Assembly (NCBI GenBank): GCA_903928075.1
Contig: CAIYPD010000070.1
Location: 1,730 to 65,729, forward strand
Direction of reading: 5' to 3'
From: Candidatus Firestoneibacteriota bacterium
Lineage (GTDB): Bacteria; Oederibacteriota; D2-FULL-39-29
Length of the DNA stretch: 64,000 nt
Each line of letters opens with the position of its first letter. Positions within the stretch are counted from its first letter, which is position 1. Made by a program: the position numbers and the translations under genes. Positions 2,542 through 55,125 of the stretch are shown piece by piece. The notes beneath the pieces were generated by a model. The model made no database searches. It saw only the letters and a list, made by a program, of their open reading frames with translations, and was not told the origin of the DNA.

Positions 2542-2574
2542 ATTCTTATCTGTGCCATCTCTTTGCCCATCTGT
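2542..2574 (+). promoter_or_regulatory. Direct-repeat motif ATCTGTGCCATC-N9-ATCTGTGTCATC upstream of the 2632 gene
   Basis: It has the same 12-mer pair and about 21-bp spacing as the sites inside the dispersed repeat (e.g. 8285-8320) and as the site immediately upstream of xerD (55083-55125). Confidence 0.45.
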
Positions 2575-2631
2575 GTCATCAGCCCACGGCATAATTATTG
2601 ATAATGCGCGGTATTTGTGAAATAATACGCT

Positions 2632-3933
2632 ATGGAAAAACTAATACGCCTTACAAAACAAAAAGCTTGCGCAACCTGTGATATTTGCTGTCGTTTCCCC
2701 GAGGAAAAACCCAACCTTAAACCAACCGGATTTAAGTTAATCAAGAATAAGGAGCTTTTTATTTGCGAAGCCTTTGATCTTAAGACCGGGAAATGCCTTA
2801 AATACTCAAAGCGCCCGCTGGACTGTAAAATCTACCCTTTCGCTGCGGCGAAGAGCCCGGATAAAGAAAACATCATGCTGGTGCTGGACCATCTCTGTCC
2901 TGCCGCTAAAAAAATAAATACAAAAAAAGAAATTCTAAAAACTAAAATAGAAGCAAAGAACCCTATTGAATGGGAAGAAACCTTTGTTCCGGTAAAGGCC
3001 TTAAAGAAAACCGGAATAAGCAATGATATTTTAAATGAACTGACAACTTCCGATATACTTTTTTTTAACTCCTATCTGCCCGCGGATTCAGGCCTGTCGG
3101 CTTTTTCTTTTGCCTACCACTTCGTCTGGGAGGATTTCTTTAAATTCTACTGGAAGCTTATTGACGGCGCTTTGTGTATCTTCGCAAAGGATATTGATAA
3201 TACCTTCATGCCCATTCCCCCTCTTCTGCCTTTGGAAAAAACGATCACAACCGCAGTTTATGAGCGGTGTTTTGAAATAATGGAGACCCAAAATAAAGGC
3301 AGGACAGAAGCCAGAATAGAAAATATCCCGGAAAACCGGGCCGGTGAGCTCGAAAAAGCGGGCTACCGTATAGTAAAAAAAGACGAGGAATACCTTTATG
3401 AAAGGAAGAAGCTCGAACATTTAAGCGGCGATAAATTCAAACATATCCGCTGGCTGATAAACGCCTTTAAAAAAGAGAAGAACTATGCTTTTAAAAAATA
3501 TTCCTTAAAGCATTTAAACGGCTGCGCCGACCTTTTATTCAAGTGGCTTTCTGAAAAGAAGAAAAAGGCCGCGAACGATAACGAGAGTTTTCTCCTGAAA
3601 AATATCGACAAAGCCCACAAAAGAGCTTTTATGAATTTTGAAGCACTGGGGCTGGAAGGCCGCGTGCTGACCGTAGGCGATAAGGTCGCCGCCTATACCT
3701 TCGGAACTCCTCTCGGAAAGAAGACTTTCTGTGTAATGTTCGAGGTGGCCGACCATGAAGTGAAGGGCGCCTCGCAGTACATCTTTATGAAAATGGCCGG
3801 TGAGTTCCCCCGCTACAAGTACTTCAACACCATGGGCGACGAAGGCATAAAATCCCTCCGGGAAAACAAAATACATTACCACCCGCTTAAGACAGTCCCG
3901 GAGTTCATAGCATATTCGAAAGGAAAACAGTAA
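2632..3933 (+). CDS. Hypothetical protein: N-terminal CxxCxxCC (YkgJ/UPF0153-like) metal-binding domain and a C-terminal about 280-aa domain, possibly DUF2156/GNAT-like
   Basis: The N-terminus reads KACATCDICCRF...CEAFDLKTGKCLKYSKRPLDCKIYPF, the typical spacing of the putative Zn/Fe-chelating domain. The C-terminal assignment is a recollection only. Confidence 0.5.
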   Translation: MEKLIRLTKQKACATCDICCRFPEEKPNLKPTGFKLIKNKELFICEAFDLKTGKCLKYSKRPLDCKIYPFAAAKSPDKENIMLVLDHLCPAAKKINTKKEILKTKIEAKNPIEWEETFVPVKALKKTGISNDILNELTTSDILFFNSYLPADSGLSAFSFAYHFVWEDFFKFYWKLIDGALCIFAKDIDNTFMPIPPLLPLEKTITTAVYERCFEIMETQNKGRTEARIENIPENRAGELEKAGYRIVKKDEEYLYERKKLEHLSGDKFKHIRWLINAFKKEKNYAFKKYSLKHLNGCADLLFKWLSEKKKKAANDNESFLLKNIDKAHKRAFMNFEALGLEGRVLTVGDKVAAYTFGTPLGKKTFCVMFEVADHEVKGASQYIFMKMAGEFPRYKYFNTMGDEGIKSLRENKIHYHPLKTVPEFIAYSKGKQ

Positions 3934-3938
3934 AAGCG

Positions 3939-4127
3939 TCCATAAAGGTCTATAAGCAAAGCTTTTCTCGATAGGAAGGATATATAGATGTCAACTACCG
4001 TTGACATAGCGAGATAAAGTCCGTAAGGTCTAAAATCTTTGAGGAATATTTAATTTTTAAGATTGTGTATCTGTGTCATCTGTTTTTTTATCTGTGACAT
4101 CAACTGCGCTTTTAGCAGCGTAAGGTC
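3939..4127 (-). repeat. Full-length copy of the dispersed composite intergenic repeat, minus orientation
   Basis: It is near-identical, as reverse complement, to 8265-8454 and 11930-12119. It contains the palindrome ATGTCAACTACCGTTGACAT and the paired ATCTGTG(A/T)CATC sites. It starts 6 bp after the stop of the 2632..3933 gene. Confidence 0.85.
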
Positions 4128-4198
4128 TAAAATCTTTGAGGGATATTTATGTAAGCTTGTTATCTTGTATTATTGTTCCATGTTTCCAAGCAGTTTGC

Positions 4199-5503
4199 CT
4201 ACCAGATCTTCACGCCCATGGCGCGTTTTAAGGAATACACACTCATCACATAAGCATACTGCGCCTGCGAATAAAAAAGTCTCGCTCTGGCCAGGGAGGT
4301 CTCAGCGTTAATAAGGTCAAGATTGGTTATTACACCATTGTCAAATCTTACCTTGGCCTGCGCCATGGCTTCTTCGGCCAGTTTTACATGAAGATCTGCA
4401 GCATTAAGCTTTTCAAAGCCGGTCTTAACATCCGAAACCGACTGTTTTATCTCCGTCGATACGGTTTCTTTAACATCCTTAACTTTGTATTCCGCCGAAG
4501 AAAGCGCGGCTTTTGCTTCCGCCTCCATATTGACCGTTCTAAAGCCGTCAAAAAGCGGTACTTTCAACCCTGCCGAAAATACCCAATTATTCTGAAGATC
4601 GGAAAGGACCGGCAGGTACCCATTCTTAAAACCCCAGGTCCCGCCAATACCAAGTGAAGGATTATCAGAATTTTCCGCAACCAATAGCTGGGCTTTTGCA
4701 ATATCCTCACTCTTCTTTGCCATAAGGTATTCTGCTCTTTGCTTTAGCGCTTTTTCTATAAAAGTGCTCTCCTCTATTTCTACCGCCTCCTGTGGAAACT
4801 TCCCTGCCAGTTTTACCTTGCCGTCAAAACCTATGTTCTTTTTCAACTGCAGGAGAGTCTTATTGTAAGAATTCTCAAAGTCAGCTTTGGCGTTCTTTGC
4901 TTCCTCCACCTTTACCTGTATGGTCAGGGCATCGTAGTCGGTGGCGCTCCCGAATTTTACTTTGTTTCTGGTTTGTTCCATATACTCGGTAAGCGAGTCT
5001 ATTTCCTTTTGAGAGACATCCACCTGCCGGGAAAGAAAGATAACGCTGTAAAATAACTGGACTGTCTGATAGGAAATCAGGGATTTTGAAAGTTCCAGAG
5101 CGTTCTCCGACTGCACCAGCATTTCTTTGGAAAGATCTATAAGAGAACCGGTCCGGCCCAGATCAAAAAGCGTGTACCTGAAGCCGACATGCATATCATA
5201 GTTGTTCTCAGGGTAAAGTTGAAAGGACCCCATCCCCGGAAAATAAAAAGGCGGATCAGGTTCCAGTCTGGCAAAAGACGCTTCCATATCGAGGGCAGGC
5301 CAGAAAGCCGCATACTTTTGGGAAAGCCTCGCCGACGCAGCGTCCCTGTCTGATGCCGCCTGTTTCACCGAAGGGTAATACTTGAGCGCCATTTCAATAG
5401 CACGCTCCACTGACAAGGTAAGCTCCGTCCCTTCCGGCCCGGCAGCCCTAGTTGGACCTAATAACCCCATAAATATTATTACTGCTAAAACAATTTTTTT
5501 CAT
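4199..5503 (-). CDS. tolC: TolC-family outer membrane efflux protein
   Basis: It has a signal peptide (MKKIVLAVIIFMGLLGPTRA) and coiled-coil/beta-barrel repeat architecture. It is the last gene of the emrA-emrB-OMP operon. Confidence 0.8.
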   Translation of the reverse strand: MKKIVLAVIIFMGLLGPTRAAGPEGTELTLSVERAIEMALKYYPSVKQAASDRDAASARLSQKYAAFWPALDMEASFARLEPDPPFYFPGMGSFQLYPENNYDMHVGFRYTLFDLGRTGSLIDLSKEMLVQSENALELSKSLISYQTVQLFYSVIFLSRQVDVSQKEIDSLTEYMEQTRNKVKFGSATDYDALTIQVKVEEAKNAKADFENSYNKTLLQLKKNIGFDGKVKLAGKFPQEAVEIEESTFIEKALKQRAEYLMAKKSEDIAKAQLLVAENSDNPSLGIGGTWGFKNGYLPVLSDLQNNWVFSAGLKVPLFDGFRTVNMEAEAKAALSSAEYKVKDVKETVSTEIKQSVSDVKTGFEKLNAADLHVKLAEEAMAQAKVRFDNGVITNLDLINAETSLARARLFYSQAQYAYVMSVYSLKRAMGVKIW

Positions 5504-5537
5504 CTTCCTCTCCCTCTTTTGTTTCTTGGCCCCATTT

Positions 5538-7163
5538 CTATTCTATCGCTATGTGGTCCGCTGCATCTGCCTGCGCTTTTTTCTTCGCCGTCCTTAAAAA
5601 CAATATTGGAATAATTATAATTATAGTTATGGCCGCGGCTATCAAAAAATCGTCATTTATAGCCTGCACAAAAGCCTGTTTTTGCAAGTTGCTTAATATC
5701 AACGCCCCGGCCTGCGAGTTGGCTACACTTCCTGCACTGTTAAAATTATGGGTCAAATGGCCGGCAACCGCGCCGTAAGTGTTCTTGAATATAGGACTGG
5801 CCTGATTTATAGCCTGCCCGAAAGTCGCGGCATGAAAAGCCGTGCGCCTCGAAAGAATGGAACCGAATATGGCTATCCCAAAACTCCCCCCAATCTGTCT
5901 TATCACATTTATAAGCCCAGAGGCCTGCGCCATTTTGTGCGATGGTATTTCAAGGAGCGAAACGGTCGTAAGCGGCGTAAATATAAGACCCATTGCCAGC
6001 CCTCTGATGCTAAGGAGCATATACATAAAAGGTTTTTCGGTCTCCAGGGTAAGATGCGAATTTAAAAGAAGGCTTATTGTGAGAAGTATCACTCCCGTTA
6101 CTGCCGGCAGTTTTGGGCTTATCTTATCAGAGATAACCCCTGAGATAGGAGAAGCAAAAGCCTGGATTATCCCAACAGGCAAAAACATACTACCGGCCAT
6201 TATTGCCGTGTAGCCGAGGGCGTTTTGCCAGTAAAGAGGCATCAGGAAAGTACTTCCAAACATGCCTATACCAAAGATGAATATAATAGCGTTACTCGCT
6301 GTAAAATTATAGTTCTTAAATAGTTTTATCTCGATAAATGGGTGTTCCTGATAACTTTCAACAATAAGAAATACTATAAGGCTTGTGATTCCGACAGTGA
6401 AACAACCGACGATAAAAGGCGAGGTCCATCCGCCGGTGTTCCAGACTGCGTTTCCTTCTGAAAGCCCGAGTAAAGTGGCGGTCAAAAACGCAGTGATAGA
6501 AAGGAATCCCAGAAAGTCAAAATCGCGCGTATTTTCTGTTTTGTATTCCCTTTGGATTATAAGGGTAACAAACAAGCCTATGAGCCCGATTGGGAGATTG
6601 ACAAAAAATATTGCCTGCCAGCTGAAATTATCCACAAGGTAGCCGCCGACAAGAGGACCAAAAGATATGGAGGCCGCGGCAGCAATACCCCAAAAACCCA
6701 TTGCCATACCCCTTTGTTCTTTCGGAAACTCCCTCATGACTATGGCCAGGCCGACGGGCATAAGCATTCCGGCTCCGAGCCCTTGAATTATCCTGAAAGA
6801 AATAAGCGAGCTTTCATTCCAGGAAAAACCGCAGAGGGCAGAACCGGCAGTAAAAATAGAAAGCGCCAGGAAGTAGGTTTTTTTGTACCCGAGATGGTCG
6901 GCAATCCAGCCGGAAGCCGGAAGCATTACACCGAGCGAAAGATTATAACCGGTCATTATCCATTCTATGGAATCCAAAGTCGCGCCAAGCGAGGCCATAA
7001 TCTTTGAAAAGCCGACATTAACTATCGTTGCGTCAAGCACCGCAATGAATGTGCCTATCATAACATTGCAAAGCACCCACCACTTGTAACTTTTGTGCTC
7101 GTGCTGGAGAGAGGGAATGCTTCTAATTATTCTTCTCTTTATGGCGTGATGCGGAGAGGCCAC
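5538..7163 (-). CDS. emrB: MFS drug efflux transporter, DHA2 (EmrB/QacA) family, 14 TMS
   Basis: The N-terminus (KWWVLCNVMIGTFIAVLDATIVNV) is typical. The protein is 541 aa and is hydrophobic throughout. Confidence 0.88.
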   Translation of the reverse strand: MASPHHAIKRRIIRSIPSLQHEHKSYKWWVLCNVMIGTFIAVLDATIVNVGFSKIMASLGATLDSIEWIMTGYNLSLGVMLPASGWIADHLGYKKTYFLALSIFTAGSALCGFSWNESSLISFRIIQGLGAGMLMPVGLAIVMREFPKEQRGMAMGFWGIAAAASISFGPLVGGYLVDNFSWQAIFFVNLPIGLIGLFVTLIIQREYKTENTRDFDFLGFLSITAFLTATLLGLSEGNAVWNTGGWTSPFIVGCFTVGITSLIVFLIVESYQEHPFIEIKLFKNYNFTASNAIIFIFGIGMFGSTFLMPLYWQNALGYTAIMAGSMFLPVGIIQAFASPISGVISDKISPKLPAVTGVILLTISLLLNSHLTLETEKPFMYMLLSIRGLAMGLIFTPLTTVSLLEIPSHKMAQASGLINVIRQIGGSFGIAIFGSILSRRTAFHAATFGQAINQASPIFKNTYGAVAGHLTHNFNSAGSVANSQAGALILSNLQKQAFVQAINDDFLIAAAITIIIIIPILFLRTAKKKAQADAADHIAIE

Positions 7164-7164
7164 A

Positions 7165-8112
7165 CTACCTCATCTTTATGAGTACTTCAACAGACATACC
7201 TGGAAGGAGTTTCCCCGAATATTTCTCCTGCTCTCTACTGTCCGGAGTAATCTTTATTGGTATACGCTGGGTTATCTTGGTAAAATTACCTGCAGCATTG
7301 CTTGCGGGAATAAGAGAGAACTGGGAAGCAGTATTGGAACCCAGCTGGGTAACCTTCCCCGACAACTTAATCCCGGAATAGGCATCCACCGTTATCTCCG
7401 AACTTTCACCGAGAGCTATCATTGAGTATTTTGTTTCTTCAAAATTTGCCGTTACCCAGATATTCTTCAAGTCATAGACTGTAAGTACCGCCTGGCCTGC
7501 TGAAACAACATCGCCCGGAAGTACCCATTTCTTTGCCACCACACCGTCCATAGAGGCTTTTACTTCCGCATTAGTTAACTGGGTCTCTACGACGCCCAAC
7601 TGGGCACTGGAGGTTTTTATCTGGGATTTTGCTATAGAGTCCGAGACCTTTGCCGCCTGGAGCGCCTTTTCGGCATGGTCATATTGTTCTTTGGCCACTA
7701 TCTTGTTGTTATATTGATTTTCAATCCTGGAGAAATCTTCTTCCGCCCGGGTAAGGTTAACCTTTGCCAGTTTGCTGTTTTCTTCCGCAAACGCAAGCGC
7801 CGCTTTGGCCTGTTCTTTTTGCGCAAGGAGGTCGGAGGCATCAAGTTTCATCAATATCTGGCCTACTTTCACATTCTCGCCTTCTTTTACAAGTATCGAA
7901 GCTATCCTTCCGGCGTATTTTGAACTCACGGTAACCTTATCTGCTTCAATCAATGCGTCATCGGTATATACCGTACTGCTGGACTTCATATACCAAACGG
8001 TAAATGCCACCGCCGCCAAAATTATTATTATCCATATCGCCATAAACATCTTCTTTTTTTGCCCGTTATTGCTCTCTATCTTCCGGGGCGCTGCCTGCTT
8101 GTGTGTTTCCAT
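7165..8112 (-). CDS. emrA: HlyD/EmrA-family membrane fusion protein
   Basis: It has a single N-terminal TM, a coiled-coil region and the beta-barrel/lipoyl domains of membrane fusion proteins. Its stop lies 2 bp before the emrB start. Confidence 0.85.
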   Translation of the reverse strand: METHKQAAPRKIESNNGQKKKMFMAIWIIIILAAVAFTVWYMKSSSTVYTDDALIEADKVTVSSKYAGRIASILVKEGENVKVGQILMKLDASDLLAQKEQAKAALAFAEENSKLAKVNLTRAEEDFSRIENQYNNKIVAKEQYDHAEKALQAAKVSDSIAKSQIKTSSAQLGVVETQLTNAEVKASMDGVVAKKWVLPGDVVSAGQAVLTVYDLKNIWVTANFEETKYSMIALGESSEITVDAYSGIKLSGKVTQLGSNTASQFSLIPASNAAGNFTKITQRIPIKITPDSREQEKYSGKLLPGMSVEVLIKMR

Positions 8113-8264
8113 TACTCCTCCGATCCTTTAAGTTAAAATATTGTTAGCAATGCTAACTATTATTTATACCATAATTCAAATATTTTTTCAATAAAACTCT
8201 TAATAAGAAACAAGGCACAAGTTTAAAGTATTTCACTCACATAAATATCCCACAACGGTTGTAG

Positions 8265-8454
8265 GCCTTACGCTGCTAAAAGCGCAGCTGATGTCACAGA
8301 TAAAAAAACAGATGACACAGATACACAATCTTAAAAATTAAATATTCTTCAACGATTTTAGACCTTATGGACTTTATCTCGCTATGTCAACGGTAGTTGA
8401 CATCTATATATCCTTCCTATCGAGAAAAGCTTTGCTTATAGACCTTTATGGACC
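8265..8454 (+). repeat. Full-length copy of the dispersed composite intergenic repeat, plus orientation
   Basis: The sequence runs GACCTTACGCTGCTAAAAGCGCAGCTGATGTCACAGAT...ATGTCAACGGTAGTTGACAT...GACCTTTATGGACC. It ends 25 bp from the stop of the ThuA-like gene. Confidence 0.85.
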
Positions 8455-8478
8455 TTTACAAACCCCTTCCCGACTATC

Positions 8479-9207
8479 TTATATCTTCTCAATCGGCTTA
8501 ACCGATTGGCCATTCGGTATCTTCGCCGAGTTTTGTACCGGCTTTGCCCATTTTACTGCGTTGAGTATCACGCGCTGGACATTTTTATTATGATAGGTGG
8601 GATGGGTTTCATGGCCGGGGCGGAAGTAGAATATTTTGCCTTTGCCCCTTATGTAACAGCAGCCGCTCCTGAAAACCTCGCCGCCTTTGAACCAGCTCAC
8701 AAAAACCAGGGACTGGGGATACGGGACATCAAAGAACTCACCGTACATTTCTTCATGCGGAAGTTCGAAGTATTCCGGCAGGCCTTCGGATATAGGATGG
8801 CCGGGATGGGTGACCCAGAGCCTTTCCTTCTCTCCTGCTTCCCTCCAGGTAAGTATGCAGGAGGTGCCCATGAGTTTTTTGAATATCTTTGAAAAGTGAC
8901 CGGAGTGCAGGACGATAAGTCCCATCCCCTGGAGAACATGTTTATGCACCCGCTCCACTATCTCATCTTTAACCTCACCGTGCGCCATATGCCCCCACCA
9001 GATAAGGACATCTGTGTTTTTCAACACCTCTTCGGTAAGTCCGTGCTCCGGCTCCACCAGGGTTGCAGTCTTAGCGGTTATCCCCTTATCCTTATTAAGC
9101 GCGGCAGCAATTACGGTATGCATCCCTTTAGGATAGATTTTCTTTATCTTTGGATTTATCAGCTCGTGCTTGAACTCATTCCAGACGGTAACTTTGATTT
9201 TCGACAT
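8479..9207 (-). CDS. ThuA-like protein (GATase1-like fold, trehalose-utilisation family)
   Basis: The motifs ([12 protein letters not shown]...GHP...RPGHETHP) resemble ThuA. The track ORF starts at a TTG, but the ATG at 9205-9207 has a good RBS (AAAGGAGAG). Confidence 0.65.
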
Positions 9208-9299
9208 ACACTCTCCTTTTATCAGATAACAAGAATACAAGAAGAAACTACCTTGATGTGTTTATCTTGCTTTCGATTGTACCTTGTACTTTATTCTCA

Positions 9300-11819
9300 T
9301 TACCACGAAAATAGTATTTCTCCTGTAACCGGGCCAACTTCCATGTATACTCCGTCAGCACCGGAAACTCTCTTGGGGGTCTTGAAAGCCCCGACTAAAT
9401 AAGGAAAAGCCGGGTCAGTCAAAATTTTGACCTGCTTTTCCGTTCCGGAGACAGGGTAAAATCTTAGCACGGCGTTTTTCAGGTTGGTGACCAGAAGACG
9501 CCGGCTAACCCCGAAATGGACGGCAGGCAGTTCGCGGCATTCAACTTTCGTACCCGAAGCCTGTTTAACAAAAATACGGCATTCATTATGCCACGCAGGC
9601 GGCAGGAGATAGTGAGCTCCGGTTTTATCCACTGTTGCGTGCGTCCCGGTAAATAAGGGCGCGCCCTCAGGGGAACTAAAGCTGATTTTGGCAACATCAT
9701 GGGGATTATACCCGCTGAAGTAAAAACCATTACGGGAACGCGAGACCGTGTGTAAAGGTGTCCGCTGAAGGGTGGTTGCTTTTGAGTGGCTTATTTTCAA
9801 ACCACCCATTTCAGCCGCCAGCAGTCGCACCAGTTGCTCTGCCGGGAAATACTTTGAAGCCGGCAAAGGTAATGGCAGTGGTCCACCCATCTTCTTTTCG
9901 TCGCAGGTCACGGTTCCACGAAGCCAACCGAGTTTTCCGCCTTTCCAGGCCGGTAGTTCAGCCAGCACGGCAAGAGCATAGGAGTTCTTCCCTCGCTTTG
10001 CAGTTGCAAGATAACGCAGATTCTTTTTGGGCTTGCCAGAAAGTTCCAGAGGCCCGCCGGAAATAATTGCCGGATGATGAAGCAGTTTACCGTAAGCAAT
10101 ACCATCGGCCCTGGTCCAGGATTTTTCCAGTGTCAGGGCAAGATCACCCTCGGCCTCAGGCGCAAGAGAAAGACCGAGTAAATCCAAAAGCTCTTTGTCT
10201 CCGACCGCCACAGGACCGTAGAAAATAACGCGGCCGCCATTTTTTATCTTTTCAAAAAGTTTTGCCCGTAATTTACTGCCCTTTTCCGGAACAGGGGTAA
10301 TAAGCAGAGAGCCTTTCAAGATTTCGGGCGCCGCAGAAAGATAGTTACCGGAACTAATTACGGTATTGATAGGGGCACCGTTATTGATGGCCCCGCGGAC
10401 ATACCAGTCCCCGAAATATACTTCGCGCAGAGCAGGATTTTTTCCGAAAACTTTCTCGTGATATTCCTTAAACGGATAAACCCAGACCAGCGGTCCAGCC
10501 TGGTCCGGCGCGTTTTCCCGGGCCCGTAAAATATGAGAAGTAACATCCGCCGGCACTTGCGCGGGCATCTCGCCTTTTGAATCGTCCACGGAGAGAAAGG
10601 CGAGAGTGTCAGGTGTTTCAGCAGTTCCCCGGCCGTTCAGACGGCTGACAGAAAGAGGCATATAGATATCATGCGGAAAACGCTGATAACGGTCGAGCCA
10701 GGGACTGTTCATCCACCACGGGTCGTGAGTATAAAAACGAAAAGGAAAACCTTTTCCGGGCAGTTCGGCAATATGGGACATCCAGCCGGCAAACTCGAGA
10801 CCAAAATCAGCGTCCAGCGCCGCCCAGGGTGAATTGACCGGTGGTTCAAGCGGGCCAAATTTATAAATATCTAAAAGAGGAACTCCGTCCGAAGCCATAT
10901 CTACGCCCGAGGTAAGATTGGTGCCGCGGGTGCGGACCAAAAGATCAGGACATTCCACACGAAAATCCTGCCAGAAACGGAGTATCCCTTCTTTTGAAGG
11001 CGCAACCGCTTCGGGCATAAATTTGTAACCGTCAAAAACCGAGCCGTTTAAACCCCAGGTTTCCATACCAAAGCCGAAGCCGTTGGAAAACCAGATGAAA
11101 TCCAATCCGAGGTTTTTATTAAAAATCTTGAGCTGACGGCCCAGGAAAGTGCCGAGAGAGGTTTTATCCGGTATGCCGTTGGGAAAGCCGGCATAAGCCA
11201 CCGTGTCTTCGTTTAAGACCGCGGCGCAGCCTAAAAAGGTCTTGCCGTACAAAGCGCCGCCGAGACAGATCTCGCGGTGCCTTTCATATTTAAAGGGTGA
11301 TTTTGCGAACTCCGGACCGGGATCAAAGGTATTCCCGACTTTTACCGGGCGCTCAAGGATGCGTTCACCTTCGGTTTTTAAATCTTTAACAAGGCCTTTT
11401 AGCCAGCCGTAGGTCAAGATTGCAGTATTTTCACGGTAGATATAAGGCCGGCGGTGGAGCCCCAGGCCTTTGGGATCCAAAGAATCCCCGTGCGCGCCTA
11501 TCCCCTGTGTGTCTTTTTCATCGGCCAGGCCGCCTTTTTTCTTAAGTTCTTGCGAATGCGCCCAGCGGTTAGCACCGCCGAGATAGCGGGCCCACTCAAT
11601 TTCCGCATTCAAGTCCCCGCGGTAGTCAAGAATTTCTGAGCCATCAGCGGTCCAGAGCATTATATGCACTTCCTCGGCATATTCACAAAGCGGGAGCCAT
11701 TGCCGGAACAACTTCCGGCAGACCGCGCGGCGGGTCTCCGCCGTATTGTCAAAGAAAGGTTTAAGGCTTATTTCCAGAGATACAACGCGAAATTTTTTCG
11801 GTTCCGGTACAAATGTCAT
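9300..11819 (-). CDS. Large hypothetical protein (839 aa), GC-richer than its neighbours, possibly carbohydrate-active
   Basis: This is a long uninterrupted ORF and no family was recognised with confidence. It lies directly upstream of the ThuA-like gene. Confidence 0.6.
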   Translation of the reverse strand: MTFVPEPKKFRVVSLEISLKPFFDNTAETRRAVCRKLFRQWLPLCEYAEEVHIMLWTADGSEILDYRGDLNAEIEWARYLGGANRWAHSQELKKKGGLADEKDTQGIGAHGDSLDPKGLGLHRRPYIYRENTAILTYGWLKGLVKDLKTEGERILERPVKVGNTFDPGPEFAKSPFKYERHREICLGGALYGKTFLGCAAVLNEDTVAYAGFPNGIPDKTSLGTFLGRQLKIFNKNLGLDFIWFSNGFGFGMETWGLNGSVFDGYKFMPEAVAPSKEGILRFWQDFRVECPDLLVRTRGTNLTSGVDMASDGVPLLDIYKFGPLEPPVNSPWAALDADFGLEFAGWMSHIAELPGKGFPFRFYTHDPWWMNSPWLDRYQRFPHDIYMPLSVSRLNGRGTAETPDTLAFLSVDDSKGEMPAQVPADVTSHILRARENAPDQAGPLVWVYPFKEYHEKVFGKNPALREVYFGDWYVRGAINNGAPINTVISSGNYLSAAPEILKGSLLITPVPEKGSKLRAKLFEKIKNGGRVIFYGPVAVGDKELLDLLGLSLAPEAEGDLALTLEKSWTRADGIAYGKLLHHPAIISGGPLELSGKPKKNLRYLATAKRGKNSYALAVLAELPAWKGGKLGWLRGTVTCDEKKMGGPLPLPLPASKYFPAEQLVRLLAAEMGGLKISHSKATTLQRTPLHTVSRSRNGFYFSGYNPHDVAKISFSSPEGAPLFTGTHATVDKTGAHYLLPPAWHNECRIFVKQASGTKVECRELPAVHFGVSRRLLVTNLKNAVLRFYPVSGTEKQVKILTDPAFPYLVGAFKTPKRVSGADGVYMEVGPVTGEILFSW

Positions 11820-11929
11820 ATCTTAGCTCCTTTAAATATAAAAAAATGCGCCGCATTTAACCCCGGCGCTTTTTTAAATTCTGTATAAACTGTTTTCTTA
11901 TTCAAATAAATATCCTTTAAAGATATTAA

Positions 11930-12119
11930 GACCTTACGCTGCTAAAAGCGCAGCTGATGTCACAGATAAAAAAACAGATGACACAGATACAGTGATGAAA
12001 ATAATAAAAATCCTACAACGATTTTAGACCTTATGGACTTTATCTCGCTATGTCAACGGTAGTTGACATCTATATATCCTTCCTATCGAGAAAAGCTTTG
12101 CTTATAGACTTTATGAACC
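11930..12119 (+). repeat. Full-length copy of the dispersed composite intergenic repeat, plus orientation
   Basis: It matches the 8265-8454 copy. It ends 5 bp from the stop of the 12124..13254 gene. Confidence 0.85.
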
Positions 12120-12123
12120 GTAT

Positions 12124-13254
12124 TTATATTTCTACCTGATACAACCGGTACTTCTTATATAAGAAGCCGCCGATATCGCTGTCAAACTTATTGATGAGGT
12201 CGTTGTCTTCAAGGTTCCAGCTCATCTCGCACCAATCATATCTGCCGTTCGCTCGGATAGCTGTCTCATAGAAAATTTCCGCAACCAGACCGGTCTGCCG
12301 GTACTCTTTTAAACAACCGCCGATAAGGGACCTGCAACCTTTTATTTTAGGTTTGTACCAGAGAAATTTAAGGAGCCCGATTATGCCCATACCCATCATC
12401 CCTTCACAGCCGCTTACATGTTTTAATACCTCATTAAGGTTGGGAAGAGTTATAGCAATACCTGCAGGCTTGCCATCTTTCGTCTCAGCGATAATTACAA
12501 CATTGGGATCCATAAACTGGAGCATACCTTCGGCCGCGCAATCCATCTCGGCGTCGGTCATCGGGACAAAGCCCCAATTTTTTTCCCAGGCCTGATTATA
12601 AACATCCTTGATTATCTGGATATCTCTTTCTTTGTTCTTCATATCAAAGCATCTTAATTTAAACTGGGAGGTTTTCTTTATCCTCAGCATCATTTTCTCT
12701 ATTCTCTCCGGCACGCCCGTGTATTTACTCTTAAGGAAAGCATAAAGATCTTTTGCCTTTTTCATCCCGTAGTCCTCTGAAAGTTTGAGATAGTATTTGG
12801 GATTGTAAGGCATCATAATTGCCGGTTCAAAATTAAAGCCTTCCAGCAAAAAGCCATACTCATCATTCGACGAGGGTGACGCCGGACCCCGCATATAGAC
12901 AGCGCCCTCTTGTTTGAGCCAGGCTTTCGCCGCATCAAAAAGAGCCCCGGAAACTTCCGTGTCATTTATAGATTCAAAGTAGCCAAAAAAACCGGCTTTT
13001 TCTTCGTGAATCTTGTTGTGCATCTCATCGGTTATTGCCGCGATACGGCCGGCAACTTTATTGTCTTTGTAGGCCAGAAAGAGTTTTCTCTTGGCATGCT
13101 GCCAGAAAGGATATTTAGTTACATCAAGCATTTTTCTATATTCGCTTTTCAGGTTGGGTATCCAGTAGGGGTTATTCTTATAAATCATCCAGGGCAGGTC
13201 TATGAATTCCTTTAGTTCGCCTTCTTTTTCAACTTCCCTTATGGAAATAGTCAT
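12124..13254 (-). CDS. GNAT-fold acyltransferase, FemAB/Acetyltransf_6-like (376 aa)
   Basis: Its size and the motif pattern (FIDLPWMIYKNNPYW...) are reminiscent of FemAB-like GNAT proteins. The assignment rests on recollection. Confidence 0.45.
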   Translation of the reverse strand: MTISIREVEKEGELKEFIDLPWMIYKNNPYWIPNLKSEYRKMLDVTKYPFWQHAKRKLFLAYKDNKVAGRIAAITDEMHNKIHEEKAGFFGYFESINDTEVSGALFDAAKAWLKQEGAVYMRGPASPSSNDEYGFLLEGFNFEPAIMMPYNPKYYLKLSEDYGMKKAKDLYAFLKSKYTGVPERIEKMMLRIKKTSQFKLRCFDMKNKERDIQIIKDVYNQAWEKNWGFVPMTDAEMDCAAEGMLQFMDPNVVIIAETKDGKPAGIAITLPNLNEVLKHVSGCEGMMGMGIIGLLKFLWYKPKIKGCRSLIGGCLKEYRQTGLVAEIFYETAIRANGRYDWCEMSWNLEDNDLINKFDSDIGGFLYKKYRLYQVEI

Positions 13255-19002: not shown

Positions 19003-19031
19003 TCCGCCAAAAAGCGTTGGCGGATTTCGCT
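19003..19031 (-). promoter_or_regulatory. Conserved leader hairpin motif TAGCGAAATCCGCCAACGCTTTTTGGCGGAG (minus-strand sense) 12-40 nt upstream of the aminotransferase start
   Basis: A near-identical about 30-nt sequence, including the CCGCCAA/TTGGCGG stem, recurs upstream of the nucleoside hydrolase (29691-29722). Confidence 0.45.
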
Positions 19032-19249
19032 ATGCTCAACTTCTCATAATTCACCTTGTTTTTCTTCCATCTATTAACTATTGTTCTATTGTTCCATTGC
19101 TCTACCCCGGGAGTAGGTATGGATGAGGGTAATGATTCACTTAAAGTCTGTAAAAGTCTATCAAGGTTCGTAAAAGTTTTTAAATGAAAGACCAGAAAAT
19201 ATCGTCTGATACTTTTTAGATTTGGAACTTCCACCTACCCTCTCCATTA

Positions 19250-19363
19250 AATATCCTTCAACGATTTTAGACCTTATGGACCTTATCTCGCTATGTCAAC
19301 GGATGTTGACATTTATATATCCTTCCTCTCGAGAAAAGCTTTGCTTATAGACCTTTATGGACC
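19250..19363 (+). repeat. Module-B (palindrome-containing half) copy of the dispersed repeat
   Basis: The sequence runs TTCAACGATTTTAGACCTTATGGACCTTATCTCGCTATGTCAACGGATGTTGACAT...GACCTTTATGGACC. It lies 48 bp after the stop of the UroD-like gene. Confidence 0.8.
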
Positions 19364-19410
19364 ATTAACAATATTCCTAAGTTTTTAAGACTTTAAAAAC
19401 TATTTTTACA

Positions 19411-28518: not shown

Positions 28519-28692
28519 TCTTTCCTCTAACAGGCTACTGAAAACCTAAAATAATGGTCATTAAGTCCGCCTTATTAGGTCGAGATCTCACCGTTTGATT
28601 ATCGAACGGTGGACAGCCTGTTACCTCGCCATTTGATCTCAAAAGGCCGGTAAAATTATCAGAATTATATCTGAAAAAGTATTAAAAAGAGT

Positions 28693-29664
28693 TTAAGACA
28701 GTATCCTTTCGGTGAAGGTTTTTACGGCCAGCTCTGCATTTACTCTGACAGCTACGAGCGCATTTGGCTTTTCTTTGGGATTTAATACTATCTCGACTCC
28801 GTTTTTACCCCGTTTCCAGCAATTAGAAATCGGCAGAGTGACCCCTCTTGTATATTTCCCCCCAGTTTCAACGGCTATTTTACAGGGCCGATATTCCAGG
28901 AGGTCCGGCGTATTCAGGGCCATTGCCGCCAGCGGATCATGGAGAATAGGCGAGTGGGCTTTACTGTTTCCCGAAACTCCCGCAAGCTGTTTTTGCCAAA
29001 GGCGGATAAGTTTCCCGAGCAATACCGGAAGTTCCCGGCCTGATTTCTCAAACCTTCTGATTTGGGCCTCAGGAAGAAGGCATTTTAGGGTTACATCCAG
29101 GCCGATCATTCTTATGGGCGCGCCGGCATTGAAGACAATGGCGGCAGCTTCCGGATCGCAGAGAATATTCCATTCCGGAAAAGACGGCGTAATTACGCCA
29201 CCCATAATAACTATTTCTTTGAGTTTCTCTGCTATTTTTGGATATTTTCTAAATAAAAGGCCGATATTGGTGAGCGGTCCTATGGTCAAAAGCGTCACCT
29301 CGCCGCTGTGCGCTTCTATGTTATTTTTCAGGAATTCTACAACATCCATAGGATAAGGTTTTATCAGGGGCTTAATTTTTGAGAGTATTTCAAATTGCCG
29401 GGGTTTGTGCTCCTGCAATTTTTTCTTATACAGTGCATTTTCAATTTTTAGCGGCCGGCCGGCGCCTGCAACTATCGGAAGGTTAAATTTTCCGAGCACC
29501 TGTAACTCCGCTGCGCCCAGCTCAGCTCTTTCCCGGGTTTTTAAAAATACGGTAGAAACTCCAAGCAAAAATATGTCACTGCTTTTTCCCAGATAACCCA
29601 GAGCCAGTGCGTCGTCAATATCATCTCCGATATCCGTATCAAGCAAAACTTTTTTAATTTTCAT
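28693..29664 (-). CDS. Inosine-uridine preferring nucleoside hydrolase (IUNH family)
   Basis: It has the N-terminal DTDIGDDIDDALAL aspartate motif. Confidence 0.85.
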   Translation of the reverse strand: MKIKKVLLDTDIGDDIDDALALGYLGKSSDIFLLGVSTVFLKTRERAELGAAELQVLGKFNLPIVAGAGRPLKIENALYKKKLQEHKPRQFEILSKIKPLIKPYPMDVVEFLKNNIEAHSGEVTLLTIGPLTNIGLLFRKYPKIAEKLKEIVIMGGVITPSFPEWNILCDPEAAAIVFNAGAPIRMIGLDVTLKCLLPEAQIRRFEKSGRELPVLLGKLIRLWQKQLAGVSGNSKAHSPILHDPLAAMALNTPDLLEYRPCKIAVETGGKYTRGVTLPISNCWKRGKNGVEIVLNPKEKPNALVAVRVNAELAVKTFTERILS

Positions 29665-29690
29665 AATCTCTCCCGGTAACTAATTACTTC

Positions 29691-29722
29691 CGCCCCAAAG
29701 CGTTGGCGGATTTCGCTACTTC
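29691..29722 (-). promoter_or_regulatory. Conserved leader hairpin motif TAGCGAAATCCGCCAACGCTTTGGGGCGGAAG upstream of the nucleoside hydrolase start
   Basis: It is about 27/30 identical to the element upstream of the aminotransferase (19003-19031). Confidence 0.45.
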
Positions 29723-33479: not shown

Positions 33480-33620
33480 GATGCAAATACCCCCTTTTCC
33501 AGTTAGACTAAGACTTTCCAGAAAATGATAAATGTCTCTAAAAGTTCATCAAAGTCTATAATGGTCTTTAAATGTAAACTCTTGCTTTCACCTTGTACCT
33601 TGTAAATTGCACTTTATACT

Positions 33621-35857: not shown

Positions 35858-35858
35858 T

Positions 35859-43001: not shown

Positions 43002-43023
43002 GTTTGCGCATTTAAGCCATTTT

Positions 43024-47300: not shown

Positions 47301-47301
47301 T

Positions 47302-48738: not shown

Positions 48739-48739
48739 T

Positions 48740-50823: not shown

Positions 50824-50987
50824 CATAATATTAGCAGATTAATGAAGAACTCTTTTTAAGACTTTTTCAGCTACAATTCTGATAATTTTAGATTATCCCT
50901 GAGTGTCAGTCTCTGCGTTATTATATGCTGCATTATACTGCATACTGCGTACTGTAAAAATGCCGGGCTATATGTTATAATTTTATT

Positions 50988-51866: not shown

Positions 51867-51874
51867 TATTACTA

Positions 51875-51970
51875 GTTCGTAAGGTCTAGAAGCAAAGCTT
51901 TTCTCGTTAGGAATTATATATAGATGCCAACTATCGTTGACATAGTGAGATAAAGTCTAAAATCTCGAAG
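51875..51970 (-). repeat. Module-B copy of the dispersed repeat, minus orientation
   Basis: The sequence runs ...AGCAAAGCTTTTCTCGTTAGGAATTATATATAGATGCCAACTATCGTTGACATAGTGAGATAAAG. It lies 9 bp after the UbiA stop. Confidence 0.75.
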
Positions 51971-52031
51971 TATATCTAAATTAAAAATACACTGGGTCCC
52001 TCCGCTGGCGGCGGACTAGGATGACAAAATA

Positions 52032-54128
52032 ATGAAAGATTTTAAATTAGTATCGGAGTATACTCCCAAGGGGGACCAGCCGGAAGCAATAAAGGAGTTG
52101 GTACTCGGGCTGAAAAATAATAAAAGGCACCAGACACTGCTCGGGGTAACGGGCTCGGGTAAAACCTTCACGGTAGCAAATGTTATTGAAAAAGTTAACA
52201 AGCCTGCAATTATTATGTCCCACAATAAAACCCTCGCGGCCCAACTTTACGGTGAATTCAAATCCTTCTTTCCGGAAAACGCCGTCGAGTATTTTGTCAG
52301 TTATTATGATTATTACCAGCCCGAGGCCTACATTGCCCAGACTGACACTTACATAGAAAAAGACTCCTCCATAAATGACGAAATAGATAAACTCAGGCAC
52401 TCCGCCACTTCTGCTTTACTCACGAGAAGAGATGTTATTGTGGTGGCAAGCGTCTCCTGTATCTACGGAATCGGTTCACCTGAAACCTACAATAAAATGC
52501 AAGCGGTACTTAACAAAGGCCGCGAGTTTGGCATGAACACCCTGCTAAAAAAACTGGTAGAGATACAATACCTGAGAAATGACACGGATTTTTACCGCGG
52601 AAGATTCCGCTTGCGCGGGGATATATTGGACATCTTCCCCTCCGCCTCTGATACCGCAATAAGAGTCGAATTCGACGGTGACACTATAGAGAAACTTACG
52701 GAAATAGAAGCCTTTTCGGGAAAAGCGCTCAGACAGATGGAAACGGCCGTTATTTTTCCCGCGGCACACTGGGTAACCCCGCCCGAAGATTTAAAGAAAG
52801 CAGCAGTCGCTATAGAAGAGGAACTGGAAGAGCGGCTTAAAGTTTATAAGGACTCCGGAAAAATACTGGAAATGCAAAGACTGGAACAAAGAACGCGGCA
52901 TGATATTGAGATGCTCCTGGAAATAGGCACCTGCAAGGGGATTGAGAACTATTCCAGGCACTTAGACGGCAGAAAACCCGGGGAACCGCCTTTCACCCTT
53001 ATTGATTATCTTCCAAAAGACGGACTTATCGTCGTGGATGAAAGTCACATTACAATTCCACAGGTGCGGGGAATGTTTGAGGGCGATAAAGTAAGAAAAA
53101 CCAATCTGGTGGATTATGGGTTCCGGCTCCCTTCCGCTTTAGACAACCGGCCTCTTTACTTTAAAGAATTTGAGGCAAGAACACCGCAAATGATTTATGT
53201 CTCCGCAACGCCGACTGATTTTGAGATAAAAGAGTCCGGTGGAATAGTTATCGAGCAGGTGATCCGCCCTACGGGCCTTATGGATCCCGAGGTAACCGTT
53301 AAACCCGCGACCGGTCAGGTGGATGACCTTATCGGAGAAATCAGGAAAGTTATCGAAAAGAAAGACAGAGTCCTGGTAACAACCCTGACTAAAAAGTCCT
53401 CCGAAGATCTTTCCGAATATTTGAAAGACATAAATATTCGGGCTAAATATTTGCATTCTGATATTGAAACTATAGAGCGGGTAAAGATCTTGCAGGGGCT
53501 CCGTGCCGGTGATTTTGATGTACTTATAGGAATTAACCTGCTCCGCGAAGGACTCGATCTACCCGAGGTGGCTCTGGTCGCCATACTGGATGCAGATAAA
53601 GAAGGTTTTCTGCGTTCCAAAACTTCGCTGGTGCAAACCATAGGACGGGCAGCCCGCAATGTGGACGGCAGGGTAATAATGTATGCGGACAAGATGACCA
53701 AATCTCTGAAATTTGCGATAGATGAAACCAACAGAAGAAGAGCCATCCAGGGCGCCTACAATAAGAAACACGGAATTACGCCCGCCTCCATCAAGAAAGA
53801 AATCAGAAATATTCTGGAAAGTATTTACGAAGCCGATTATTACACCATCCCCGTCGCCGCCGAAGAAGGCGGCAAATATATAAGCGGCGACGAGATGCCC
53901 AGACTTATCTCCAATATGGAAAAAGAGATGCATGCCTTCGCCTCAAAAATGCAATTTGAAAAAGCCGCCGCAATGCGTGATAAGATAAAAATGCTGAAAA
54001 GCCAGATAAACAGGATGAAGGAAGGCGGGTTTATCGCATTAGATATGGACGACGGGCTGACACCGGTGCAGAGAAAGGCGAAGCAAAGGAGAATAGGAGC
54101 ACAAAAATCAAAAAGGTTCAAAAGATAG
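52032..54128 (+). CDS. uvrB: Excinuclease ABC subunit B
   Basis: The N-terminus ([11 protein letters not shown]...[10 protein letters not shown]), the helicase motifs and the C-terminal UVR domain are present. Confidence 0.95.
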
Positions 54129-54183
54129 CAACTTCGCCTTCATTTGCCAAACCTCTAACATCCAAACATCTAGCCTTCTATTC

Positions 54184-55074
54184 TTACGGCCTTGGATGAA
54201 ACTTCTTATGCACTTCTCTAAGGCGTGACCGGTCAATATGTGTATATATTTGTGTAGTTGAAATACTCGCATGGCCCAGCATCTCCTGCACGCTACGCAA
54301 ATCCGCGCCATGGGTAAGCAGATGTGTAGCAAAAGTATGCCTTAGTGTATGCGGCGTTATCTCTTTTCTTAAACCCGCTTCTGCCACTCTCTTGACAATT
54401 ATCTTCCAGAGCCAGACTCTGCTAAATTTTTTCCCTTTTTTGTTAAGAAACAATTCTCCGGAAGAAGTCGCGGTTTTATCAAGGATGCCTCTTCTTACTT
54501 TATCTATATATTCATCCACCCAGTCGGCGGCAATCTTCCCCACGGGAACTATTCTCTCTTTACTTCCTTTCCCCATACAGCGAATATACTGCGCCACCGT
54601 ATCATAATCATGTATCTTTAAATTTGCAACCTCAGAAATTCGCATTCCGGTGGCATACATTAGCTCAAGTATAGCACGGTCCCGCAAGCCCCCCGGAGTC
54701 AGCGTATTTACTCCGTCCAGCAGAGCGGATATCTCCGCTTCAGAAAGAACATCCGGCAGTTTTTTGTTAAGCCGGGGTGCTTCCAGTTCCGAAGCCGGAT
54801 TATGTTTTATATTTTTTTCCAGCGAGAGGAATTTAAAGAAAGTTTTTATGGCCGAAAGTTTTCTTGCGGAGGAGCTGGGGTCATATTTTGTTCTCATCTC
54901 ATAGAGATAATCTATAACATCGCGCTTTCCTATCTGGGCCGCGTCCGCTATGCCTTTTTTTTCAATAAAATCCATAAACTGATTTATATCATTCCGGTAT
55001 GAATTAACGGTACTGCCCGGATAGCGTCGTTCAGTCGAGAGGTACATTAAAAATTCAGGTACTAACTCCCGCAT
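54184..55074 (-). CDS. xerD: Tyrosine site-specific recombinase XerD/XerC
   Basis: The conserved R...H..R...Y box is present: HTLRHTFATHLL...LGHASISTTQIYTHI. Confidence 0.88.
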   Translation of the reverse strand: MRELVPEFLMYLSTERRYPGSTVNSYRNDINQFMDFIEKKGIADAAQIGKRDVIDYLYEMRTKYDPSSSARKLSAIKTFFKFLSLEKNIKHNPASELEAPRLNKKLPDVLSEAEISALLDGVNTLTPGGLRDRAILELMYATGMRISEVANLKIHDYDTVAQYIRCMGKGSKERIVPVGKIAADWVDEYIDKVRRGILDKTATSSGELFLNKKGKKFSRVWLWKIIVKRVAEAGLRKEITPHTLRHTFATHLLTHGADLRSVQEMLGHASISTTQIYTHIDRSRLREVHKKFHPRP

Positions 55075-55082
55075 GGGGTACC

Positions 55083-55125
55083 CCCTGATGACACAGATAC
55101 AAGGAACGAGATGGCACAGATCCGA
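55083..55125 (-). promoter_or_regulatory. Direct-repeat motif ATCTGTGCCATC-N11-ATCTGTGTCATC immediately upstream (about 12 nt) of the xerD start
   Basis: Read on the minus strand it gives GGATCTGTGCCATCTCGTTCCTTGTATCTGTGTCATCAGGGGGTACCCCATG. It is the same as the motif at 2542-2574 and as the motif embedded in module A of the repeat. Confidence 0.45.

Follow-up and report, generated by a model that had tools for sequence, protein, structure and literature searches.

Paired 12-mers with an abutting hairpin form a labile intergenic module in Firestonebacteria

The 12-mer pairs of the window and their setting

We find that a 12-mer, ATCTGTGNCATC, recurs as closely spaced pairs in the intergenic gaps of a 64-kb stretch of DNA from a Candidatus Firestoneibacteriota bacterium (contig CAIYPD010000070.1, positions 1,730 to 65,729; 64,000 nt, hereafter the window). 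Its core is ATCTGTG-N-CATC, that is, 11 specified bases and one free base N, and the window holds 10 exact matches to it, where 0.01 would be expected and none of 100 shuffled versions reaches 10. These matches make up five head-to-tail pairs, referred to below as arrays, all of them intergenic, with a start-to-start spacing of 21 nt in four pairs and of 23 nt in the pair in front of xerD. The original prediction for this DNA, that such a repeated 12-mer pair exists, is thereby confirmed; its positions marked the same objects but lay 4-6 nt off, and the gaps to start codons to which it drew attention were recovered as 51 nt to ATG 2632 and 12 nt to the xerD ATG at 55074. The arrays and the elements that directly follow them are as follows.

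2548-2559 and 2569-2580, plus strand: solo array 1, two 21-nt units, ATCTGTGCCATC-tctttgccc-ATCTGTGTCATC
2581-2591, plus strand: residual hairpin after solo array 1, AG and then a short GCC-cac-GGC
4069-4080 and 4090-4101, plus strand: array in the left copy of a 218-nt repeat, ATCTGTGTCATC-tgttttttt-ATCTGTGACATC, in a convergent gap without a downstream gene
4102-4120, plus strand: hairpin after the 4069-4101 array, AA and then CTGC-gctttta-GCAG
8322-8311 and 8301-8290, minus strand: array in the right (inverted) repeat copy, 178 nt upstream of the start (8112) of an HlyD-MFS-TolC operon
8271-8289, minus strand: hairpin after the 8290-8322 array, AG and then GCTGC-gctttta-GCAGC
11988-11977 and 11967-11956, minus strand: array in the third repeat copy, 137 nt upstream of a gene for 839 aa (ATG 11819)
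11937-11955, minus strand: hairpin after the 11956-11988 array, AG and then GCTGC-gctttta-GCAGC
55121-55110 and 55098-55087, minus strand: solo array 2, 23-nt spacing, ATCTGTGCCATC-tcgttccttgt-ATCTGTGTCATC
55075-55086, minus strand: the 12 nt between solo array 2 and the xerD ATG (55074), AGGGGGTACCCC, with a G-run (probable Shine-Dalgarno sequence) and a small palindrome
60000-60020, plus strand: decayed single unit, ATCGGTGCCATCtcactttta, intergenic and opposed in orientation to the flanking genes (nhmmer E = 0.077)

Solo array 1 lies between a divergently transcribed extracytoplasmic function (ECF) sigma/anti-sigma operon on the minus strand and a gene with CxxCxxCC and LPG_synthase_C signatures in Pfam, which starts at ATG 2632 (gene 2632 below); 51 nt separate position 2580 from this ATG. 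The gene behind solo array 2 encodes an XerD recombinase (PF00589 and PF02899 in Pfam). When two mismatches were allowed, the search of the window added a single near-copy, at 60002, and an nhmmer profile of 19 arrays likewise found no further strong copy in the window, only this decayed one (E = 0.077).

Anatomy of the module and its turnover between related species

A genome collection was scanned with the pair pattern and returned 85 loci (cited by L numbers), among them 12 loci with 14 pairs from a related Firestonebacteria metagenome-assembled genome (MAG). The Firestonebacteria alignment set used throughout consists of 19 arrays, those of the window and of L009-L091. In these arrays 11 of the 12 positions of the 12-mer show no variation at all and the spacer is loosely conserved, as TCnCTnCCC or TGTTTTTTT; the unit is a tandem repeat of 21 nt (range 19-23 nt) with an invariant 12-nt core. 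After the last 12-mer comes AG in 17 of the 19 arrays, and then a hairpin. The mean folding energy is -8.2 kcal/mol for the 32 nt that follow the array, compared with -2.2 for the 32 nt before it and -3.8 for random windows, and a fold of -6 kcal/mol or lower follows 15 of the 19 arrays versus 21% of background windows (binomial P = 1.4e-7). The stem is G+C-rich and mostly begins 0-1 nt after the 12-mer. Stems differ at every site, are all perfect Watson-Crick helices and lack a T-run after them, and between related repeat copies there is a compensatory change, GCTGC/GCAGC in the window against GCCGC/GCGGC in L091. Further, decayed units are present in L055 and L086, where the two units next to the hairpin stay perfect. 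We are confident, on these observations, that two invariant boxes and an anchored hairpin of free sequence make up one discrete, labile and intergenic module.

An intrinsic terminator was considered for the post-array hairpins and rejected, as they are without T-runs and do not appear in the terminator scan list. We also rejected the coding of a small peptide, since none of the reading frames places the free base at a wobble position and one of them has a stop codon when N is A. The free base shows a regularity of its own. It differs between the two boxes in all 19 Firestonebacteria arrays and is never G, and 18 of the 19 pairs have exactly one T among their free bases; from pooled base frequencies the chance that all 19 pairs differ at N is ~1e-4. 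The pattern does not extend to the arrays of Nitrospirae.

Three of the window's pairs are carried by a longer repeat, one pair in each of its three full-length copies, as had been predicted.

3938-4155, plus strand: copy 1, 218 nt, a mosaic of a palindrome (module B), AAGGTC-type short repeats, the array and its hairpin
8236-8453, minus strand: copy 2, in inverted orientation and 95% complementary to copy 1
11926-12124, minus strand: copy 3

The solo sites had been taken for the same pair, which is correct for the 12-mers but not for the free base and the spacer. Spacers read TCTTTGCCC or TCGTTCCTTGT at the solo sites and TGTTTTTTT in the repeat copies, and an alignment of the five window sites with 60-nt flanks showed identity limited to the 12-mers, a T before them and an A after them. 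The pair is lacking in four partial members of the repeat family (19246-19367, 51881-51969, 55731-55852 and 58767-58890). As the flanks are unlike between solo sites and repeats and the pair is missing from these four partial copies, we consider the pair a module of its own, one copy of which has been captured by the 218-nt mosaic repeat, giving rise to three of the five window pairs. The possibility raised beforehand, that the solo sites are simply truncated repeat fragments without positional bias, thus does not apply, given that there is no flank homology and an orientation bias is present. The other idea put forward at the outset, that repeats seed new copies of the site, comes close to what the comparative data show, and its repeat-borne half holds. 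The RNA structure of the whole repeat is not significant (z = -1.36), and the third copy contains a canonical terminator further downstream.

Two observations concern the carrier repeat itself. The efflux operon TolC-MFS-HlyD (4199-8112) is bracketed by the inverted repeats 3938-4155 and 8236-8453; in a sister species (L086, 3440-4680) it is absent, and a two-gene cassette, flanked by AAGGTC-type short repeats and HigB/HigA-like as read by eye, without tool annotation, fills the slot between the orthologues of thuA and gene 2632. The alternation of efflux operon and toxin-antitoxin pair in this slot resembles an exchange of cassettes at gaps rich in repeats. Module B, 61 nt long, contains the palindrome ATGTCAAC-N4-GTTGACAT, and its eight copies occur with and without the 12-mer pair (3958-4018, 8373-8433, 12039-12099, 19282-19342, 51881-51957, 55767-55827, 58767-58827 and 58830-58890). 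Towards the downstream gene it reads TTGACA-N17-TAAGGT or TAAAGT, a form that the promoter scan lists at 55784-55756 on the minus strand, and the copy at 55767 has the symmetric change TGTCAAA..TTTGACA.

The two solo sites were followed through related genomes. Upstream of xerD the 12-mer is found at none of the five orthologous loci of other Firestonebacteria (XerD identity 89, 87, 81, 80 and 78%). The spacer between the acylphosphatase gene and xerD measures 292 nt in the window versus 12-202 nt at these five loci, two of which have other short tandem arrays in the slot, and five strain-level contigs with identical XerD carry an identical array. Being present in the strains and absent at the five orthologous loci, the xerD array is taken to be a species-specific acquisition. 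A second adjacency to such a gene, in an Acidobacteria MAG (L082, 5520-6470), where a pair in reverse orientation lies 20 nt after the stop codon of an XerD homologue (43% identity) and just before the next gene, is probably coincidental.

The window is syntenic with the Firestonebacteria MAG CAITEH01, and the gap between the ECF sigma gene and gene 2632 can be compared over a range of relatives. It contains two units in the window, four in L086 and L096, one in L097 and none in L098-L101. L086 and L096 represent the sister species, with 85% protein identity for gene 2632; the array is at the same place, its two distal units are degenerate, and the hairpin is full in L086, AGCCGCGG-cggt-CCGCGGCT. 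L097, a 76% relative, has kept the ECF neighbour and one box, and the 72-76% relatives L098-L101 have none. Downstream of the array lies one further feature.

2598-2626, plus strand: sigma-70-like promoter, TTGATA-N17-AATAAT, 5 nt before ATG 2632

This promoter is kept in relatives both with and without the array, as TTGATA-N17-AATAAT or TTGAAT-N17-TAAATA, 5-6 nt before the ATG. The array of gene 2632 is thus an add-on upstream of a self-sufficient and apparently leaderless promoter. This leaderless arrangement of the CxxCxxCC/LPG_synthase_C gene, with no Shine-Dalgarno sequence, is conserved in relatives with 72-85% identity (L086 and L098-L101).

On the other side of the gap, the ECF sigma gene has a promoter of its own, GGAACTT-N16-TCCAAA at 2481-2453 on the minus strand, the sole such match in the window, which is GGAACTT-N16-TCTAAA in L086. 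ECF sigma factors usually drive their own promoter, and since this promoter is of unrelated sequence, the neighbouring ECF sigma factor, which is the only regulator encoded nearby, is probably not the reader of the 12-mer. The 12-mer was for the same reason rejected as a promoter of the adjacent sigma factor, its motif being unrelated to GGAACTT-N16-TCCAAA. We point out that GGAGGAG and a TTG codon come after the ECF promoter, and that the sigma open reading frame probably starts at ~2432 and not at ATG 2519.

Judged from these sequence comparisons, the array is apparently not a conserved operator of xerD or of the ECF operon, and the module is gained, lost, expanded and contracted between close species while staying at low copy number, with ~15 exact pairs in the related MAG and 5 in the window. 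The regulon including xerD that had been envisaged finds no support in orthologous loci, with the motif at 0 of 5 xerD loci and 0-4 units at the 2632 site, and the analogy drawn to response-regulator operators is weak, as invariance of all 11 specified bases and an abutting hairpin are both atypical of such operators.

Orientation, neighbouring genes and occurrence in other phyla

The 19 Firestonebacteria arrays show a clear relation to the direction of transcription. All eight that lie between co-directional genes point with transcription (P = 0.008), and for 13 of the 19 a co-oriented gene start follows within 250 nt. In several cases the stretch from array to start codon is taken up by a hairpin and/or a Shine-Dalgarno sequence only (xerD 12 nt, L081 11, L068 16, L043 18, L016 22, L091 30 and L053 34 nt), and the Nitrospirae locus L007 has an analogue of AGGGGGTACCCC, namely AGGGGGGAGACCAC-ATG. 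Overall, the gap ranges from 11 to ~250 nt with an intervening hairpin of 10-48 nt, so the position is not fixed. A sigma-70-like -35 box is located at the 3′ foot of the hairpin in L063 (TTGACA-N18-TATTAT) and in both arrays of L032. A consensus scan gave no sigma-70 promoter inside the arrays and matches beside them at 2598-2626 and 2529-2500.

The downstream genes are unrelated and encode XerD, an efflux pump, YchF, a UVR-motif protein, RNase Y, S5, PyrD and adenosine kinase. Arrays adjoin an RNase Y gene in two phyla: in L016 (Omnitrophica; 5717-5772) 22 nt separate the array from the start codon downstream, and in L055 (Firestonebacteria; 7816-7860) it is 12 nt past the stop codon and on the other strand. 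This adjacency is probably due to chance.

The combination of pair, A(A/G) and unique hairpin is also found in Nitrospirae (L007, L022, L060 and L073), in Thermodesulfobacteriota (L021) and in a deltaproteobacterial MAG (L043 and L064, weaker in L056). A fold of -6 kcal/mol or lower follows 7 of 10 arrays from outside the Firestonebacteria, including the weaker L016 and L027 (Elusimicrobiota; P = 0.001). Divergent gaps in MAGs of Nitrospirae, Thermodesulfobacteriota and Omnitrophica furthermore contain a mirror-image form (<-<- ->->) in which each arm faces its own gene, with the layout hairpin-CT-GATnACnCnGAT-9-GATGACACAGAT-gap of 10-31 nt-ATCTGTGNCATC-7..10-ATCTGTGNCATC-AG-hairpin. Neither the A(A/G) with hairpin nor the mirror-image layout was part of the scan query. 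The Omnitrophica locus L016 has the mirror form with a weak downstream hairpin (-4.5 kcal/mol), and the mirror element of L021 lies between the L18 and S5 genes of a ribosomal-protein operon. In Gemmatimonadota, Planctomycetes and others a variant is found with TGTG after the second box and a sub-period of 9 nt, often flanked by octamer arrays.

The proteins encoded beside the arrays give no common denominator. An all-against-all BLAST of open reading frames (within 3 kb at E <= 1e-8, and within 1.5 kb at E <= 1e-4) found no family common across phyla, and the neighbour comparison no recurring DNA-binding family; the recurrence of RNase Y (twice) and of ECF sigma factors (three genomes) looks coincidental. 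A few loci are of a different kind or carry other repeats. One match (L070/L103) appears to be a genuine set of phage iterons with ATCTGTGTCA as its basis, the Streptomyces loci have 3-5 copies next to CTGGGTCC octamer arrays, with uninformative Pfam annotation, and in the Gemmatimonadota loci GTTCCGTA octamer arrays adjoin the 12-mer pairs.

A possible mechanism, rival explanations and related elements

We suggest that the pair and its hairpin constitute a small, modular and labile cis-element, possibly a portable promoter or 5′-leader cassette, a view that we hold tentatively and with somewhat less than even confidence, its mechanism being our own proposal. The 11 bases that are invariant around a free base, in both boxes and in inverted copies, point to one sequence-specific reader per box, and the 19-23-nt spacing would bring both boxes to the same side of the DNA helix. 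The two 12-mers are therefore considered putative docking sites for one sequence-specific protein, which we think is probably right, and two copies of this protein would dock on the same helix face. That a hairpin of free sequence starts at the next base on both mirror arms suggests a boundary, most economically the 5′ end of a transcript. We thus arrive at a model, more doubtful than probable, of a transcription start with a 5′ leader. The module would act in cis, in one direction, on the transcription unit ahead; the 33-nt array would span roughly -33 to -1, and transcription would start at the purine after CATC, where C|A offers a pyrimidine at -1 and a purine at +1. The mRNA would then begin with the hairpin as a 5′-terminal stem-loop, ahead of its Shine-Dalgarno sequence and start codon. 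Stabilising stem-loops at the 5′ end are known to protect bacterial mRNAs.

Several observations weigh against this proposal. Three to four of the 19 arrays sit in convergent gaps without a gene to drive (window 4069, L019, L055 and L089), and the decayed unit at 60002 is opposed in orientation to the genes beside it. For gene 2632, a conserved sigma-70-like promoter lies downstream of the array, which means that the array is not the main promoter there. The 12-mer fits no sigma-70, sigma-54 or ECF consensus, and we know of no precedent for a promoter that has the same 12-mer as -35 and -10. The hairpins fold equally well in sense and antisense, with no G-U asymmetry, which leaves an RNA-level role undemonstrated. 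Among the matches from outside the Firestonebacteria, 22 of 73 arrays fall in open reading frames, many matches are not comparable, being Asp-rich coding repeats or plain tandem repeats, and in a viral collection control 12-mer pairs gave 0, 3 and 2 matches versus 8 for the true motif. The cross-phylum matches owe their selection to the 12-mer pattern, and, since control pairs also match, some of the 85 matches in the genome collection are background. Known signals were compared by inspection against consensus sequences and rejected: neither a sigma-70, sigma-54, sigma-32 or ECF signal (including the ECF41 TGTCACA) nor a DnaA box, a CRP, Pho-box, IHF or dif/Xer site or a Tn7, Mu or IS10 end fits both copies.

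The reading that would extend furthest is that one conserved factor reads the pair with its foot-anchored hairpin of free sequence across phyla, the module having spread horizontally, being portable before any gene, singly or back-to-back, and serving as a compact promoter/5′ leader or as some other control device close to the start. We rate this as rather unlikely. Its range, for which our confidence is equally low, might include, at a minimum, Firestonebacteria, Nitrospirae, Thermodesulfobacteriota/Deltaproteobacteria and Omnitrophica, as well as the related TGTG form in Gemmatimonadota and Planctomycetes.

Other explanations have to be set against the cis-element proposal. A classical operator, bound in tandem by a transcription factor (response regulator, LytTR or AraC type) and defining a stable regulon with xerD and gene 2632 among its members, would explain direct repeats two helical turns apart, the few copies per genome before diverse targets, the arrays just upstream of a sigma-70-like -35 box (at 2598-2626, L063 and both L032 arrays) and the retention of the gene-2632 site in the sister species. 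We nonetheless find it improbable: the xerD site is missing at 5 of 5 orthologous loci, the gene-2632 site has anything from 0 to 4 units, and ~11-250 nt from array to -35 box or start, with a hairpin of 10-48 nt in between, is incompatible with a fixed activator geometry. Real regulons have degenerate sites, unlike the 11 of 11 invariant bases here, the target genes have no functional theme, one element lies between L18 and S5 inside a ribosomal-protein operon, and the neighbouring ECF sigma factor reads GGAACTT-N16-TCCAAA and not the 12-mer. The insertion between L18 and S5 is in line with a selfish, non-autonomous element similar to a miniature inverted-repeat transposable element or to repetitive extragenic palindromic (REP) sequences, whose 12-mers would bind a transposase or recombinase supplied in trans and whose effects on genes would be incidental. 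We consider this unlikely, since the copies share the 12-mers alone, with flanks and hairpins unique to each site, which is not expected of copy-and-paste; target-site duplications and an autonomous partner element were looked for and not found, the neighbours of the arrays include no recurring transposase or other protein family, none of the 85 loci has a pair of arrays bracketing a transposase, copy number is low, and the orientation bias with transcription is strong. It does draw on the presence/absence polymorphism between close species, on the mirror form, which is ~100-170 nt long with terminal CTGATG...CATCAG, on the patchy multi-copy spread in few species of many phyla, and on the efflux operon bracketed by array-bearing inverted repeats, which is absent from the sister species, where a toxin-antitoxin pair is in the slot.

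Alternatively, the element could act at the RNA level, transcribed in a 5′ or 3′ untranslated region or in intercistronic RNA, the 12-mers binding an RNA-binding protein or small RNA and the hairpin setting a processing site or giving protection. The lack of G-U asymmetry, an antisense strand that folds as well as the sense strand, a whole repeat that is not significantly structured (z = -1.4) and the lack of an Rfam family match make this quite unlikely in our opinion, and the narrow ~21-nt spacing is more natural for DNA. Two loci do leave no room for a promoter, L053, where 8 nt separate a stop codon from the array and the hairpin, a Shine-Dalgarno sequence and GTG come next, and L021 between L18 and S5; the short divergent mirror gaps (inner 10-31 nt), on the other hand, leave no promoter space upstream of both arms. 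An RNA element would also be consistent with all 8 co-directional arrays running with transcription, with hairpins whose pairing is conserved and whose sequence is free, and with the TTGACA-N17-TAAGGT of module B, which in full repeat copies would put the array in a 5′ leader. Finally, the arrays might have no function and be slippage-prone tandem repeats or chance similarities of low complexity. Unit number does vary, arbitrary control 12-mer pairs occur as tandem repeats in large collections, and the same gaps contain other short tandem arrays (AAGGTC, GGTnCTAG and TGACTA types), but with 10 exact copies against 0.01 expected, a core that is invariant while spacers and flanks diverge, and an anchored hairpin at P = 1e-7, we regard this explanation as very improbable. 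In L086 the two hairpin-proximal units are perfect and the distal ones decayed, and a free base that differs between the boxes in 19 of 19 arrays argues against recent duplication.

Several systems already described invite comparison with the module. The BOX elements found in Streptococcus pneumoniae (boxA-(boxB)n-boxC) and the bacterial interspersed mosaic elements (BIME) that enterobacteria build from REP sequences are often co-transcribed with adjoining genes. Like them, the module is modular, intergenic, non-coding and hairpin-bearing, with one component iterated, and is gained and lost; unlike BOX and REP, which share their whole sequence including the stems, it has only the 12-mers in common while its hairpins are unique, its copy number is much lower, and the same core recurs across phyla. 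A REP/REPIN mobilised by a REP-associated tyrosine transposase (RAYT) was rejected, given that the hairpins differ at every site and that no RAYT/Y1 transposase or other mobilising gene was found in the scanned open reading frames of the window or beside the arrays. Operators of LytTR (AgrA, ComE) and AraC/XylS regulators consist of two repeats ~21 bp apart just upstream of -35. The arrays resemble them in having head-to-tail sites two helical turns apart that face the gene, some directly upstream of a -35 box, but differ in that the promoter distance is not fixed, a hairpin intervenes, and the sites are perfect rather than degenerate and are not kept at orthologous genes. Plasmid and phage iterons are direct repeats of 17-22 bp with a period of ~22 bp that are bound by Rep monomers, an inverted half-site serving as operator. 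Shared with these are the ~21-22-bp period, the head-to-tail arrangement and sometimes one inverted copy upstream; the module differs in its two units only, in scattered chromosomal gaps, without a rep gene, an AT-rich unwinding region or DnaA boxes, and BLAST of the mirror-image element against 72,556 plasmids gave no meaningful match. The short tandemly repeated repetitive (STRR) heptamers of heterocystous cyanobacteria are likewise intergenic arrays of short direct repeats with variable unit number, and arrays of this type, with units of 7-10 nt, are also present at the Firestonebacteria loci; the module differs in its 21-nt unit, 12-nt invariant core, normally exactly two perfect units and a tied hairpin. 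The nearest published idea is that of putative mobile promoters, near-identical short upstream sequences before unrelated genes, sometimes in different taxa ('Promoter reuse in prokaryotes', PMC3575422). Rapid upstream rewiring would follow in both cases; the shared portion of the module is only 2 x 12 nt and has no sigma consensus, and its promoter activity is putative.

Rfam 15 gave no match at gathering score over the whole window and nothing relevant at E <= 5 in 2300-12300. A string search of the searchable literature for six variants of the 12-mer returned primers only, and no work on Firestonebacteria cis-elements was found there. We conclude that the module belongs with the modular intergenic repeat elements and fails the defining tests of BOX/REP, of LytTR/AraC sites and of iterons. 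If it is only a lineage-specific mosaic repeat, it warns annotators off inferring a xerD regulon and shows where, in an uncultured phylum, intergenic turnover and the exchange of cassettes are concentrated. If one reader protein underlies the cross-phylum layout, it would be a new and widely transferable control element, and pull-down with a 33-nt probe would be a direct handle on the factor in organisms whose transcription signals have yet to be described.

Other repeats share these gaps. A second, REP-like module, TTTTGTCATCC-[stem of variable sequence]-GGATCCAGCGTCTTTG, occurs in the window at 55152 (plus strand) and 52026 (minus strand), as well as in L019, L063, L089, L091, L092, L097, L099, L100 and L116, and the end of one copy is 4 nt away from the ATG of uvrB (52032), on its upstream side. 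It has 'GTCATC + hairpin' in common with the 12-mer module and, by this likeness, may belong to a related family. Firestonebacteria gaps are moreover rich in tandem arrays of 7-10 nt (AAGGTCyAT, GGTnCTAG, TGACTAnT and ACCTTATGA), which can take the position of the 12-mer array in different species; elsewhere they are present in L068 (5040-5100) and, upstream of xerD, in L094 and L116. In the window they are found at these positions.

738-779: short tandem array
4022-4057: short tandem array
4119-4154: short tandem array
19151-19181: short tandem array
33529-33569: short tandem array
55740-55770: short tandem array
56622-56652: short tandem array
56752-56782: short tandem array

Two further repeats of the window are unrelated to the 12-mer pair, namely a 30-nt direct repeat with a hairpin, TCCGCC..GGCGGATTTCGCTA (19003-19032 and 29689-29718; 93% identity), and a 43-nt inverted repeat (28651-28693 and 50848-50890; 93%).

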